IMG/VR virus record: IMGVR_UViG_2728369188_000006
Span: 1-16,660 of that record
DNA length: 16,660 bases
Source of the DNA: a virus
Taxonomy: Duplodnaviria > Heunggongvirae > Uroviricota > Caudoviricetes
Direction: 5' to 3' (one strand)
Positions 1 through 4,789 of this stretch are shown here, in pieces (within the stretch, counting starts at the first letter, position 1; the number at the start of each line of letters is the position of its first letter). Both the position numbers and the translations under genes were made by a program. The notes beneath the pieces were generated by a model that was not told the origin of the DNA, made no database searches, and saw nothing but the letters and a program-made list of their open reading frames with translations.

Positions 1-1127
1 TTACAACGCTACTTTACTCCATCCTTTACCTCGATCATCATGATAACGATCGGTTTGCTGTTGCGTTTTATGACCAAGTAGTTTTTGTGTATTTAAACCC
101 TGTTCTTTATACAAACGTTCTGATAAAGACCTTTGTTCATGAAATGTTGCGGGAGAACCTTCACCCCAGTTAATTCCTGCTAAATCCCTCGCTTTACTGA
201 AATTCATCGTCAATGTATTGGCTTTAACCTGCGCGCCGCGTTCAGCCTGTGAGGTAGTACGAAAAAAATGTACAAGGTATGGGCTGACAGCATAGTCACG
301 GCAGCGGGCTACTACATCGCGCAAACTCCATTTAATCGCATTGAGACGCAGGGAAAGCGGGATGGCGATTTTGCTCCCGGTTTTTTCCTGGATGACATGG
401 AGATGATCATCCCAAATATCGCTAAATTTCATACGCGAGATATCACCTAACCTCTGGCCGGTAACCAGTGCTAACAGCATGGCATTCCCCATATAACGAT
501 GACTGGCATCAGCGATATCAAAGATTTTTTGCCACTCTTCAAGACTTAACCGTTGTCGGGTAATTTTTCTTCTGGGCTGTTTGGTGGCTAATGCCGGGTT
601 ATAGCCAGGGGGACTTCTCCGTAGTGTTGCGCCTCTTTGAAAACATCAATCAGTACGGAACGAACTACTTGCGCCATTCTCGGCTGTCCGGCGGCGATAT
701 ACTCGTCAAGCAACTGGGCTATATCCCTGACATCAACGGCTGAAATTAACTTCAGTCCTGCTCGTTCCCTGAGCAAGGATACTGGTTTGGCTTTCTGTTT
801 ATAGGTGTTGAGCTTTATATCGCCACTTTTCAGTCTGTCTTCCTGGATTGCTTGATAGCGATCTAACCAGGTTGACGTTGTGATTGCTTTTCCTTTGCTG
901 GTTGCGATCCTGTCACTGATAGCTAGAATCTGCCGGGTTCTTTGCTCAGCTAGGCGTGTATTGGCCTCAGTGGCAATAGCAATGGCTTCAGCTTCGTTTG
1001 TGCCCAAAGAATGAAACTTCCCGGTCACTGGATGCTTATATCGCCAATAAACTTTATTTACTTTTCTGCTATAGAGCGGATACAAGTTCGGGACTGAAAC
1101 ATTATTCTTACGTGGTCTGGCTGCCAT
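1..1127 (-). pseudogene. Lambda-family tyrosine integrase, split by a frameshift into an N-terminal part (588..1127) and a C-terminal catalytic part (1..about 596)
   Basis: Both minus-strand ORFs align in order with lambda Int as I recall it: arm-binding N-terminus, then the LAxxTGQRxGD and HExRSL...LLGH...Y catalytic region. The N-frame stops at 588-590 (TAG); the C-frame is open from about 596 and continues the alignment (RQRLSLEEWQKIF), so a 1-nt indel near 590-605 separates them. Confidence 0.8.
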
Positions 1128-1247
1128 TACTTAAAATCCTTTGTAGAATAATAGAATCACTTTTCTTAATGACAGGAGTAACTAATTCTCCAACTAACTC
1201 TGCGTCCTCACGTACTCGCCATAGTCGACCTTGTTTCATTGCCGGTG
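1108..1247 (-). pseudogene. Excisionase (xis-like) 3' remnant, 5' end removed at the IS911 boundary
   Basis: The minus-strand frame encodes ...KQGRLWRVREDAELVG..., which resembles the C-terminal G-x-W-R-x-R-E-D motif of excisionase/AlpA-type HTH proteins. Its stop (1108-1110) overlaps the int start by about 20 nt, as lambda xis does. The ORF only continues upstream by running into IS911 sequence. Confidence 0.4.
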
Positions 1248-1319
1248 TGTAGTGGCACACTGAATTTGGCCACCTGAACAGAGGTGATATGCTCACCTCA
1301 GAACAACACAGGTGCTCCA

Positions 1320-1622
1320 ATGAAAAAAAGAAATTTCAGCGCAGAGTTTAAACGCGAATCCGCTCAACTGGTTGTTGACCAGAACTACACGGTGGCAGAT
1401 GCCGCCAAAGCTATGGATATCGGCCTTTCCACAATGACAAGATGGGTCAAACAACTGCGTGATGAGCGTCAGGGCAAAACACCAAAAGCCTCTCCGATAA
1501 CACCAGAACAAATCGAAATACGTGAGCTGAGGAAAAAGCTACAACGCATTGAAATGGAGAATGAAATATTAAAAAAGGCTACCGCGCTCTTGATGTCAGA
1601 CTCCCTGAACAGTTCTCGATAA
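1320..1622 (+). CDS. insN: IS911 OrfA (InsN-like HTH transposase subunit), 100 aa
   Basis: ATG at 1320 and stop at 1620-1622. The protein [33 protein letters not shown]... matches the IS911 OrfA sequence as I recall it, with a C-terminal leucine-zipper-like region. Confidence 0.85.
1571..1577 (+). promoter_or_regulatory. Programmed -1 ribosomal frameshift heptamer A-AAA-AAG of IS911 (orfA to orfB)
   Basis: The heptamer sits in the orfA frame as tta-aaa-aag. The -1 frame downstream reads [39 protein letters not shown], which is the OrfAB continuation. Confidence 0.6.
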
Positions 1623-2174
1623 TCGGGAAACTCAGAGCGCATTATCCTGTGGTCACACTCTGCCATGTGTTCGGGGTTCATCGCAGCAGCTACAGATACT
1701 GGAAAAACCGTCCTGAAAAACCAGACGGCAGACGGGCTGTATTACGCAGTCAGGTACTTGAGTTGCATAACATCAGGTTCTGCCGGGGCAAGAAGCATCG
1801 CCACAATGGCAACCCTGAGAGGCTTCAGAATGGGGCGCTGGCTTGCCGGCAGGCTCATGAAAGAACTGGGACTGGTCAGTTGCCAGCAGCCTGCGCACCG
1901 TTATAAACGAGGTGGTCGTGAACATGTCACTATCCCGAATCACCTTGGGCGGCAGTTCGCAGTGACAGAGCCAAATCAGGTATGGTGCGGCGACGTGACG
2001 TACATCTGGACGGGGAAACGTTGGGCATACCTTGCCGTTGTTCTCGACCTGTTTGCAAGGAAACCGGTAGGTTGGGCAATGTCGTTCTCTCCGGACAGCA
2101 GACTGACCATCAAAGCGCTGAAAATGGCCTAGGAAATCCGCAGTAAACCAGCCGGGGTAATGTTCCACAGCGAT

Positions 2175-2440: not shown

Positions 2441-2455
2441 CACAGGAGCTCTGTT

Positions 2456-3532
2456 ATGGCAGGTAAAGTTACGGAAACCGCTGTTGTGGGTGGCGTGGAT
2501 ACACATAAAGATCTGCACGTTGCCGCTGTCGTAGATCAGAACAATAAAGTTCTGGGGACCCAGTTTTTCTCCACAATACGGCAAGGTTACCGGCAGATGC
2601 TGGCATGGATGACTTCGTTTGGGGCATTAAAGCGAATTGGTGTTGAGTGTACTGGCACCTATGGATCAGGTCTGCTTCGCTATTTACAGAATGCCGGGTT
2701 AGACGTTCTTGAGGTGACTGCGCCAGATCGGATGGAGCGACGCAAACGGGGTAAAAGTGACACGATTGATGCTGAATGTGCCGCTCACGCCGCATTCTCC
2801 CGAATAAGAACCGTCACACCCAAAACGCGCAATGGCATGATTGAGTCTCTGCGGGTATTAAAAACTTGCCGAAAAACAGCAATATCAGCCCGCAGAGTCG
2901 CTCTCCAGATTATCCATTCCAATATTATCTCTGCCCCGGATGAATTACGTGAACAGCTCAGAAATATGACGCGCATGCAGCTCATCAGGACTCTGGGATC
3001 CTGGCGGCCTGATGCCAGTGAATACCGCAATGTTACCAACGTTTATCGTATTTCATTAAAGTCCCTTGCCCGACGCTATCTCGAGTTACATGACGAAATC
3101 GCTGATTTGGATGTCATGATTGCGGCAATTGTCGATGAGCTGGCGCCTGAACTGATTAAACGTAATGCTATTGGATACGAAAGCGCTTCGCAGTTGCTGA
3201 TCACGGCAGGAGACAATCCCCAACGATTAAGATCAGAATCAGGTTTTGCGGCACTGTGTGGTGTCAGCCCTGTTCCCGTATCTTCAGGAAAAACGAATCG
3301 TTATCGACTTAACCGGGGTGGAGATCGTGCTGCAAATAGTGCACTTCACATCATTGCCATCGGACGTTTGCGAACTGACGATAAAACGAAGGAATATGTC
3401 GCCAGACGAGTAGCGGAAGGGCATACAAAAATGGAAGCAATACGCTGCCTGAAGCGCTATATCTCACGCGAAGTTTATACATTACTGCGTAATCAAAACA
3501 GGCAGCTCAACAGCATCCCGATAACGGCTTGA
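2456..3532 (+). CDS. IS110-family transposase/recombinase (N-terminal RuvC-like DEDD domain, C-terminal Transposase_20-like domain), 358 aa
   Basis: The N-terminus VGGVDTHKDLHVAAVVD is the IS110-type DEDD motif 1. The C-terminal ...FAALCGVSPVPVSSGKTNRYRLNRGGDRAANSALH... matches the conserved IS110-family C-terminal domain pattern. This is not IS621 itself on my recollection of that sequence. Confidence 0.85.
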   Translation: MAGKVTETAVVGGVDTHKDLHVAAVVDQNNKVLGTQFFSTIRQGYRQMLAWMTSFGALKRIGVECTGTYGSGLLRYLQNAGLDVLEVTAPDRMERRKRGKSDTIDAECAAHAAFSRIRTVTPKTRNGMIESLRVLKTCRKTAISARRVALQIIHSNIISAPDELREQLRNMTRMQLIRTLGSWRPDASEYRNVTNVYRISLKSLARRYLELHDEIADLDVMIAAIVDELAPELIKRNAIGYESASQLLITAGDNPQRLRSESGFAALCGVSPVPVSSGKTNRYRLNRGGDRAANSALHIIAIGRLRTDDKTKEYVARRVAEGHTKMEAIRCLKRYISREVYTLLRNQNRQLNSIPITA

Positions 3533-3865
3533 CTCTTAGAAGGGCGTCCAGGGCAGCCACTATACAAGCAGGCAGTTCCGGCAGTTACTGTGGCGTTACC
3601 AGATCAAACAGAGTCTGAGTCGACGAGGAAATTGCTGGGATAACAGCCCGATGGAGCGCTTCTTCAGGAGTCTGAAAAACGAGTGGATACCGGTGACGGG
3701 TTACATGAACTTCAGCGATGCTGCCCATGAAATAACGGACTATATCGTTGGGTATTACAACGCGCTCAGGCCGCACGAATATAACGGTGGGTTGCCACCA
3801 AATGAATCGGAAAACCGATACTGGAAAAACTCTAAAGCGGTGGCCAGTTTTTGTTGACCACTACA

Positions 3866-4789
3866 AAACACTGCTGAGATATTCAATTTTCCAGTGCCGG
3901 ATGTGGCACAAAAGGAGCGGCGCGTGGCAGATCTCGACGATGGTTATACGCGCATTGCAAATGAGTTGCTGGAAGCTGTGATGCTGGCCGGATTAACACA
4001 GCACCAGTTTCTGGTCTTCCTGGCTGTCATGCGCAAAACATATGGCTTTAATAAAAGACTGGATTGGGTGAGCAACGAGCAACTTTCCGAATTGACCGGG
4101 ATATTGCCGCACAAGTGTTCTGCTGCAAAAAGCGTTCTGGTAAAGCGTGGGATTTTTATTCAGAGCGGGCGGAATATCGGCATTAATAATGTGGTCAGTG
4201 AATGGTCAACATTACCCGAATCAGGTAAGAAAAATAAAGTTTACCTGAAAGAGGTAAATTTACCTGAATCAGGTAAGAAAAGTTTACCCAAATCAGGTAA
4301 AGGCGTTTACCCGAATCAGGTAAACACAAAAGACAAACTAACAAAAGACAATATAAAACCTTTTTCGTCCGAGAATTCTGACGAATCCTCTGACCAGCCA
4401 GAAAACGATCTTCCTGTGGTGAAACCGGATGCTGCAATTCAGAGCGGCAGCAAGTGGGGGACAGCAGAAGACCTGATCGCCGCAGAGTGGATGTTTGACA
4501 TGGTGAAGACCATCGCGCCATCAGCCAGAAAACCGAATTTGCAGGGTGGGCTAACGATATCCGCCTGATGCGTGAACGTGACGGACGTAACCACCGCGAC
4601 ATGTGTGTACTGTTCCGCTGGGCATGCCAGGACAACTTTTGGTCTGGTAACGTGCTGAGCCCGGCCAAACTTCGCGACAAGTGGACCCAACTCGAAATCA
4701 ACCGTAACAAACAACAGGCTGGCGTGACAGCCGGAAAACCAAAACTCGACCTGACAAACACTGACTGGATTTACGGGGTGGATTTATGA
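3866..4789 (+). pseudogene. O: Lambda-type replication initiator O, 5' end lost at the IS911 junction, with a 1-bp frameshift near 4538-4540
   Basis: The frame entering from the IS911 end reads NTAEIFNFPVPDVAQKERRVADLDDGY..., which aligns with lambda O from residue 3 (MTNTAKILNF...ERNVADLDDGY). The N-terminal frame ends at 4566-4568, and the C-terminal part (FAGWANDIRLMRERDGRNHRDMCVLFRWACQDNFWSGNVLSPAKLRDKWTQLEINRNKQQAGV...DWIYGVDL) continues in another frame. AATTTG here corresponds to AATTTTG in the expected reading. Confidence 0.8.
4212..4360 (+). other. Lambdoid origin of replication inside O: five 17-bp palindromic iterons plus an AT-rich region
   Basis: Iterons TTACC(C/T)(G/A)AA(T/A)(C/G)AGGTAA start at 4212, 4241, 4260, 4284 and 4307, each with TTACC...GGTAA dyad symmetry. 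They are followed by CACAAAAGACAAACTAACAAAAGACAATATAAAACC. The position within the O linker region matches ori-lambda organisation. Confidence 0.8.

Follow-up and report, generated by a model that had tools for sequence, protein, structure and literature searches.

An IS911-like element carrying a nested ISEc21 at a probable IS-associated deletion junction between xis and O in a lambdoid prophage at icd of Escherichia coli

How did the remains of a phage excisionase gene, xis, come to be joined through an insertion sequence (IS) to a replication gene O that has lost its start codon? The arrangement is found in the stretch of DNA analysed here (the window), the 16,660 nucleotides of IMG/VR virus record IMGVR_UViG_2728369188_000006. 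The window is a segment of the Escherichia coli chromosome and is 100% identical to strain FDAARGOS_536 (NZ_CP033762.1); its positions 1-5600 are also identical (100%) in about 80 further complete genomes. The region 1248-3865 is very probably the scar of an IS-associated deletion in a lambdoid prophage integrated at icd. A first-pass annotation had already placed an IS at a deletion junction between xis and O. The nesting of a second element, ISEc21, within this IS, the inactivation of the IS copy itself and the frameshifts in int and O were absent from that annotation and are described below.

The window lies within a degraded lambdoid prophage bounded by the intact icd gene and by a displaced 3' fragment of the same gene, icd', a pseudogene at 711872-712039 of NZ_CP033762.1. 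Membership among the lambdoid prophages at icd is evident from the integrase gene beside intact icd, from the icd' fragment and from the lambda-type O/P/nin/Q modules; the attachment site is the one used by e14. Both flanks of the IS lie inside this single island delimited by attachment sites, from icd to icd'.

On the left, the window begins at the int stop codon. The integrase gene (1-1127, minus strand) is a pseudogene of an intE-type tyrosine integrase (e14/689R6 type), with the Pfam domains Arm-DNA-bind_1 and Phage_integrase matched on its two halves. A 1-nt deletion near 604, mapped against the int of prophage 689R6, divides it into open reading frames (ORFs) 588-1127 and 1-492, and RefSeq labels the gene 'intE, frameshifted'. 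The xis remnant (1108-1247, minus strand) retains codons 37-81 and 2 nt of codon 36 of the 81-amino-acid XisE; the N-terminal 35 codons are gone. Positions 1-1247 align with int-xis of 689R6 at 93% identity, and the alignment ends exactly at 1247, within codon 36, after the letters ...CATTGCCGGTG. Past this breakpoint the 689R6 reference continues (...CCGGTG/GACAAAATAAATTC..., the slash marking the breakpoint) and completes the 81-amino-acid XisE, at the point where the window enters the IS instead. The 45 retained residues (37-81) are identical to those of 689R6 XisE. Residues 5-62 of intact XisE match the Pfam domain Exc (PF07825); the remnant ORF matches no Pfam family and lacks a complete winged-helix Exc domain. 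RefSeq nevertheless places here an 'excisionase' of 62 amino acids (WP_071589359.1, 1108-1296, minus strand), of which only the last 45 residues are XisE, the first 16 codons being read from the left inverted repeat of the IS. Judged by its sequence, WP_071589359.1 is a chimeric remnant rather than an excisionase.

On the right, the remnant of O (3866-4789, plus strand; Pfam Phage_rep_O) begins at the first base after the IS. Positions 3866-5476 match phage PhiR26_1 at 96.9% identity, and positions 3866-12578 match the prophage of strain 4/0 at 96.6-98.5%, with both alignments starting exactly at 3866. In both references O starts with GGAATTATGGCAAACACTGCTGAG, and the breakpoint falls at ATGGC/AAACACTGCTGAG. 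Position 3866 is thus the third base of O codon 2; the coding loss amounts only to ATGGC, and the remnant, which lacks these letters and everything upstream, reads NTAEIFNF.... A 1-nt deletion after 4537 further divides O into ORFs 3894-4568 and 4568-4789 (RefSeq: 'replication protein, frameshifted'). Rightward of the scar, P (4786-5487, plus strand) is the first phage gene to have escaped damage; it is an intact ORF of 233 amino acids with a Pfam Phage_lambda_P match (1.6e-61) and 95.7% amino acid identity to P of strain 4/0. The first-pass annotation had xis cut at the IS left end (1248) and O joined to the IS right end (3865) near its third codon, and had proposed alignment against intact relatives; the alignments with 689R6, PhiR26_1 and the 4/0 prophage directly place both end points where it had put them, the second now resolved to codon 2.

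The interval 1248-3865 contains no phage DNA and consists of an IS911-like element of the IS3 family with ISEc21 nested in it. The left part of the IS911-like element (1248-2174, plus strand) carries the left inverted repeat, an intact orfA (1320-1622) with an A6G slippery site, and a broken orfB; the right part (3549-3865, plus strand) carries the 3' end of orfB and the right inverted repeat, ending ...TTGACCACTACA. The ends of the element are TGTAGTGG...CCACTACA. It starts with TGTAGTGGCAC at 1248, reads TGTAGTGGCACAC... from that position, and its last letters are ...GACCACTACA at 3865. The inverted repeats are perfect over the terminal 8/8 bp, followed by a common GGCCACC block, and the element has the TG...CA ends of its kind. 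The triplets flanking it are GTG and AAA, so that no target duplication is present, as had been reported. Members of the IS3 family transpose by a copy-out/paste-in mechanism and produce direct repeats of 2-4 bp (PMC3299598). As a control, seven intact 1249-bp copies of the same IS were sampled from other genomes. Perfect 3-bp duplications flank five of them (TTC, GAC, AAT, GTG and CCT), and each of these copies splits a single gene. This indicates that the ends of the IS are placed correctly and that simple insertion normally leaves a 3-bp repeat.

The loci that flank the IS are 5-6 kb apart in the related prophages (689R6, PhiR26_1 and 4/0). The sister prophage at icd of strain 4/0 (NZ_CP023849.1, 1252723 onward), which is apparently complete, has 13 genes in about 6.0 kb between xis and O. 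The first six encode a DUF4222 protein, an ASCH-domain protein, a TraR/DksA-family protein, one hypothetical protein, a DUF1382 protein and a DUF1317 protein; the last seven are exo, bet, gam, a cell-division inhibitor gene (kil), an S24-peptidase repressor gene (cI), a cro-like regulator and a YdaT-domain gene at the cII position. Stretches of similar content, 5-6 kb long, are present in PhiR26_1 and the 689R6 prophage. Against the 54-kb icd region of FDAARGOS_536, a tblastn search with 27 proteins from the early and immunity regions of three related prophages matched only the xis remnant, O and P. The island as a whole thus lacks the early-left, immunity and cII-type genes, which have not simply moved elsewhere in it, and their absence, which the first-pass annotation had read from the window, is borne out by this search and by the annotation. 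On the sequence comparison the loss appears to comprise the 35 xis codons, exo-bet-gam-kil, N, the repressor gene, cro and the cII-type gene, together with the early promoters and operators and the O start codon. Measured against 4/0 this is about 6 kb with 13 genes; the figure would rise if two prophages in tandem were involved.

These alignments refute a simple insertion into a phage that never had the genes in question, followed by decay of the duplication. Such an insertion would have to account for an xis without 35 codons, including most of the Exc domain, and for an O without a start codon; the flanks derive from two separate genes that are read from opposite strands, and all related prophages have 5-6 kb between the flanking loci. 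Nothing was found in its favour, and together with an assembly artefact, considered next, it retains a negligible probability.

The distribution of the junctions was determined in a collection of 5426 complete genomes. The left junction was counted in 81 of them and the right one in 80. This int allele (at least 99% identity) is represented by 82 records, every one of which has the left junction; other int alleles reach no more than 93% identity. The allele is found only together with the IS junction, and no genome of the collection combines it with an intact xis. In a larger collection the chimeric xis ORF is present on 952 contigs. Ten distinct contexts of this ORF were returned, with the left junction in 10/10 and the right junction in all but one (L015). 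The presence of the junctions in some 80 independent complete genomes and in hundreds of draft contigs excludes an assembly artefact, 80 complete genomes carrying the same deleted junction pair. The pair is fixed in a clonal group that includes sequence type 1193 (ST1193).

Locus L015, a draft, keeps the left junction, and some 2.1 kb of different DNA stands in place of window 3261-5128, with which the remainder of ISEc21, the right end of the IS, O and part of P have been lost. We considered it as a possible precursor of the window arrangement and rejected it as a later secondary deletion; the one complete genome without the right junction might, at a guess, have undergone a similar later loss. 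In L013, a 1.9-kb element encoding IstA/IstB-like proteins is inserted at about 3170. Both loci are examples of erosion from the nested IS that has gone on in relatives of the window.

The order of events and the molecular route are inferred from these observations. In a first step the IS911-like element would have entered the early region, its target lying in xis or just at the beginning of O. Everything from this copy to the other end point would then have been lost, through adjacent deletion by the transposase or through homologous recombination with another copy in direct orientation, and a single IS copy would have been left between the non-matching triplets GTG and AAA. The predicted precursors would read GACCACTACA-GTG-GACAAAATAAATTC for an IS in xis with a GTG duplication, and GGAATTATGGCAAA-TGTAGTGGCAC for an IS at the start of O. 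Later decay would have brought the frameshifts in int and O and the entry into the IS of ISEc21 and then of IS30 or an IS21-family element. An IS-associated deletion is supported by the coincidence of the similarity breakpoints with both IS termini at single-base precision. Mutations that combine an IS with a deletion and lack a duplication are well documented for the IS3 family: in the E. coli long-term evolution experiment, 14/14 deletions associated with IS150 had no duplication, and they were attributed to an insertion and a subsequent adjacent deletion, which in some cases was extended afterwards (PMC11708052). Like these 'IS-del' mutations, the window has one IS copy at the junction, no duplication and non-contiguous flanks, and erosion from the IS goes on later, as in L015; it differs from them (PMC11708052) in being a natural, clonally fixed event with no time series or precursor.

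The same paper bears on the possibility that the deletion was independent of the IS, arising by illegitimate recombination or double-strand-break repair, and that the IS entered at or during the event without a duplication, as has been proposed for some IS5 and IS481 events. An IS without a duplication at the centre of a deletion, with no detectable earlier copy, has been reported, and break-directed insertion has been proposed to explain it (PMC11708052). All 14 deletions associated with IS150, itself an IS3-family element, nevertheless had an earlier IS copy at the site (PMC11708052), and in the window both breakpoints lie exactly at the IS ends, as events driven by transposase or by IS homology would leave them. 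An IS-independent origin consequently appears very unlikely. Among the IS-associated routes, adjacent deletion and recombination between two IS copies yield the same product, and sequence separates neither from the other. The IS-mediated adjacent deletion originally proposed thus stands as an IS-associated deletion, its specific route being indistinguishable from two-copy recombination.

The IS copy bears on the choice of route through its own lesions. It has the two-ORF layout of the IS3 family with a -1 programmed frameshift: orfA matches Pfam HTH_Tnp_1, an AAAAAAG motif lies at about 1572-1578, the orfB fragments match rve and rve_3, and an intact sister copy (L005) is annotated with 'programmed frameshift'. 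With ISEc21 removed, the element measures 1244 bp and is 99.4-99.5% identical to intact 1249-bp copies, such as that of E. coli 536; its identity to copies in other E. coli overall is 99.4-99.8%. Three lesions affect orfB of the window copy: a 5-bp deletion after 1775 that shifts the frame, located by three-way alignment with L005 and L006; a TGG-to-TAG stop at 2130-2132; and the insertion of ISEc21 at 2175-3548. As read from these lesions, the window copy is itself inactivated. The closest copy, in strain 2022H048 (L006, 6001-7244), is 99.8% identical and has the same 5-bp deletion. It sits between a truncated integrase gene and a truncated phage methylase gene, followed by ninE, and so represents the same kind of scar in a different prophage. 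The shared lesion could reflect either the spread of a non-autonomous variant or the copying of the lesion between IS copies.

Several observations weigh against the proposed IS-associated deletion in one prophage, or against particular steps of it. Among the 5426 complete genomes none qualifies as a precursor, in which the IS would sit at one end point flanked by a duplication with the neighbouring DNA still in place, and the route is therefore reconstructed from its product. The collection likewise holds no intact ancestor with this int-xis allele, and none of the 5426 genomes has an intact prophage combining this int-xis allele with the arm that carries O, P and the inverse autotransporter gene, which leaves a single-prophage ancestor hypothetical. 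The 5-bp frameshift in orfB is, moreover, common to the window copy and to a copy elsewhere. If this lesion predates the insertion, the element would have had no transposase of its own, which would slightly favour recombination between IS copies, or transposase supplied by another copy, over self-driven adjacent deletion.

The different affinities of the two arms raise the possibility, considerably less probable than a deletion confined to one prophage, that the IS is the seam of two tandem prophages at icd. The first, of e14/689R6 type, would have contributed Septu-like cargo, int and xis, and the second, of 4/0 type, O, P, the inverse autotransporter gene, nin genes and sitABCD. An IS-associated deletion or IS-IS recombination between them would have removed the rest of the first prophage, the internal attachment site and the int-to-cII portion of the second, a loss of tens of kb and not of about 6. 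In agreement with this, the lineage matched by the sequence changes precisely at the IS. The left arm is 93% identical to the 689R6 type and 89% to e14 of K-12, and the right arm is 96.6-98.5% identical to the 4/0-type prophage at icd, whose int is only 63.5% identical. The junction of P with the inverse autotransporter gene is present in 558 genomes, and about 470 genomes beyond those of window type carry this arm; the two of these that were examined (4/0, at icd, and RIVM_C039629, beside ybhC) have other int alleles, and the restriction of the window int allele to the IS junction points the same way. A search of the phage collection with the int-xis arm returned one relative only, 689R6 at 93%. 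Lambdoid phages, however, exchange int-xis modules freely, and the module of P and the inverse autotransporter gene is found beside ybhC with yet another int, so a single ancestor of mosaic make-up can be envisaged just as readily. None of the relatives showed prophages in tandem or an internal fragment of icd. The deletion had originally been placed within one prophage; the absence of the xis-to-O genes holds, and the lineage switch at the IS means that the loss may span two prophages in tandem.

The relationships of the two arms to known prophages are otherwise straightforward. With e14 and the 689R6-type prophages the window prophage shares its attachment site, an int-xis region 89-93% identical, and a slot for defence or other cargo between icd and int. 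Unlike e14, it has a right arm of lambda-type O-P-nin-Q genes with an inverse-autotransporter moron, and sitABCD at the far end. The 4/0 prophage, at the same attachment site, is collinear with the window from O to ylcG at 96.6-98.5% identity, including the inverse-autotransporter moron and an alpha/beta hydrolase gene; it differs in its int-xis allele (63.5%), its complete early and immunity region, its intact lysis and structural genes, and one more 357-bp repeat in its inverse autotransporter gene.

The first-pass annotation had named the element at the junction IS911. It shares with IS911, as represented by IS911A of the K-12 prophage CP4-6, the same orfA, the A6G slippery site, an orfB with the DDE (rve) domain, TG...CA ends and 3-bp duplications, and K-12 InsN falls in the same 90% protein cluster as the window OrfA. 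By the ISfinder convention, elements under one IS name are about 95% identical or more. The window element is 90.4% identical over 750 nt to K-12 IS911A, the copy used for this comparison rather than the Shigella prototype. It ends in TGTAG, and plasmid copies of IS911 type that end in TGAAG are 92%/87% (L008) and 89%/88% (L010) identical to it. Assignment to the IS3 family and to IS911-like elements therefore holds and the strict name IS911 does not; 'IS911-like' is the accurate name, and by the convention the element would, on its sequence, be a separately named relative.

ISEc21, an IS110-family element identified from Pfam matches and its NCBI name, occupies 2175-3548 (plus strand; 1374 bp), with a non-coding region at 2175-2455 (281 nt) and a transposase gene at 2456-3532. 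The transposase (358 amino acids) has the Pfam domains DEDD_Tnp_IS110 (PF01548) and Transposase_20 (PF02371), and an exactly matching protein is named 'ISEc21 family transposase' at NCBI. ISEc21 has entered between the codons GAT (D) and CAG (Q) of ...FHSD/QGSHY..., in the HSDQG motif of the IS911-like orfB, and the flanks of ISEc21, ...AGCGAT and CAGGGC..., show no repeat, in keeping with the IS110 family. An Rfam scan of the whole window, including the non-coding region of ISEc21, found no family at threshold. The target of ISEc21 is defined by a seekRNA and comprises codons around the second D of the IS3-family DDE motif, without duplication (Siddiquee et al. 2024, PMC11187229). The DEDD transposase, the upstream non-coding region and the target are the same here, and nothing material differs from the published element (PMC11187229); we therefore rejected the presence of ISEc21 in an IS911-like element as a new observation. 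The same insertion point is found in IS911-type hosts on plasmids of E. coli, Enterobacter and Klebsiella (L008, L009 and L010; three diverged hosts). On one of these plasmids ISEc21 is 99.1% identical and the host IS only 87-92%, which shows that the insertions are independent and site-specific. The 2618-bp composite of the IS911-like element and ISEc21 has a match at coverage of at least 80% in 331 plasmid records.

A further insertion into the IS911-like element is seen among relatives of the window. In L012, L014 and L016 an IS30 (1221 bp) lies at window position 1581-1582, in the order ...AAAAAAGGCTAC/IS30/ACCGCGCTC, with a 2-bp AC repeat. In IS911A of K-12 CP4-6, a host IS only 90% identical, IS30A lies at precisely this position with the orientation unchanged (L007, 2041/3263). 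The site just downstream of the IS911 frameshift site looks like a hot spot for IS30. Complete genomes with the 1.2-kb IS30 insert include MS10858, MS10711, MS10860, MS8324, MCJCHV-1 and 09-02E, all of them ST1193 strains (PMC11488385).

The prophage had been called cryptic, and at the sequence level the damage extends well past the scar, to int, O, the lysis genes and the structural genes. Genes for cI, cro, cII and N are missing, xis is cut short, and int and O each carry a frameshift; the annotation marks the lysozyme, J and tail genes as partial and contains no terminase or head genes. The ORFs that remain intact are P, the inverse autotransporter gene and the nin-Q genes within the window, and sitABCD and a defence pair outside it. 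Such a remnant would be incapable of repression, induction, excision or replication as a phage, and its crypticity appears over-determined, given that frameshifted int and O and an inactivated IS are added to the scar.

The gene order in the RefSeq annotation of NZ_CP033762.1 places the junction in its surroundings. From the left, icd is followed by an AAA ATPase gene, an HNH nuclease gene, intE (frameshifted) and the 'excisionase', then by a partial IS3-family transposase gene, the ISEc21 transposase gene, a second partial IS3-family transposase gene, the replication protein gene (frameshifted) and replication protein gene P. Next come the gene for an inverse autotransporter of 1302 amino acids, an alpha/beta hydrolase gene, ybcN, ninE, ybcO, rusA, ylcG, quuD, a porin gene and essD, and on the right a partial lysozyme gene, a partial J, IS4, tail fragments, sitDCBA and the icd 3' fragment.

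The two genes between icd and int (L001, 11358-13732, directly left of window position 1) form a Septu-type pair by PADLOC models, with PtuA at 2e-239 and the HNH partner, PDC-M01B, at 1e-114. This Septu-like pair fills a slot that carries other cargo in 689R6-type prophages and in e14 of K-12, where it contains ymfD, ymfE and lit. The inverse autotransporter (window 5737-9645; 1302 amino acids), with IAT_beta and repeated Big_1/Invasin_D3 domains, is encoded between P and the nin genes. PhiR26_1 has ren at this position, and the inverse autotransporter gene occupies the same position in lambdoid prophages at icd and beside ybhC. It contains an internal 357-bp repeat whose copy number varies among strains, giving proteins of 1183, 1302 or 1421 amino acids. 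At the other end of the window, the partial lysozyme gene adjoins the partial J gene at about 15122-15320 onward (L001, 29122-31851; from annotation). This contact would be a second deletion junction, with no IS, and would account for the loss of Rz, terminase, head and most tail genes. J is interrupted again, by IS4, just past the window end.

A candidate hybrid promoter is found at the right junction itself (3854-3883, plus strand), with a -35 TTGACC in the IS right inverted repeat, an 18-bp spacer and TG-GATATT in the O remnant. It was recognised by consensus scan alone as a sigma-70-like site oriented into the O remnant and P. The region contains 7 such promoter-like sites, against 5.9 expected from shuffling, and with a count at chance level the hybrid promoter may serve as a lead to IS-driven read-out but does not demonstrate function. 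It is doubtful, though conceivable, that the IS is the seam of collapsed tandem icd prophages in which cargo useful to the host was kept (the Septu-like pair, the adhesin and sitABCD), and that the hybrid promoter would give repressor-independent transcription into P and towards the adhesin gene.

The finding is one of ordinary prophage decay, and all of its components are of known kinds: an IS3-family element at a deletion junction, ISEc21 at its published target, IS30 at a recurrent site, and a decaying lambdoid prophage at icd. It does not challenge current understanding, and its value lies mainly in annotation, where the RefSeq 'excisionase' is to be corrected to a chimera of the xis remnant and the IS inverted repeat. 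The locus also offers a clean natural example of nested, site-specific insertion of one IS into another, with ISEc21 and IS30 entering an IS911-like element. For the E. coli lineage that contains ST1193, it shows how a sit-carrying prophage at icd was immobilised, its cargo now being fixed chromosomal genes.

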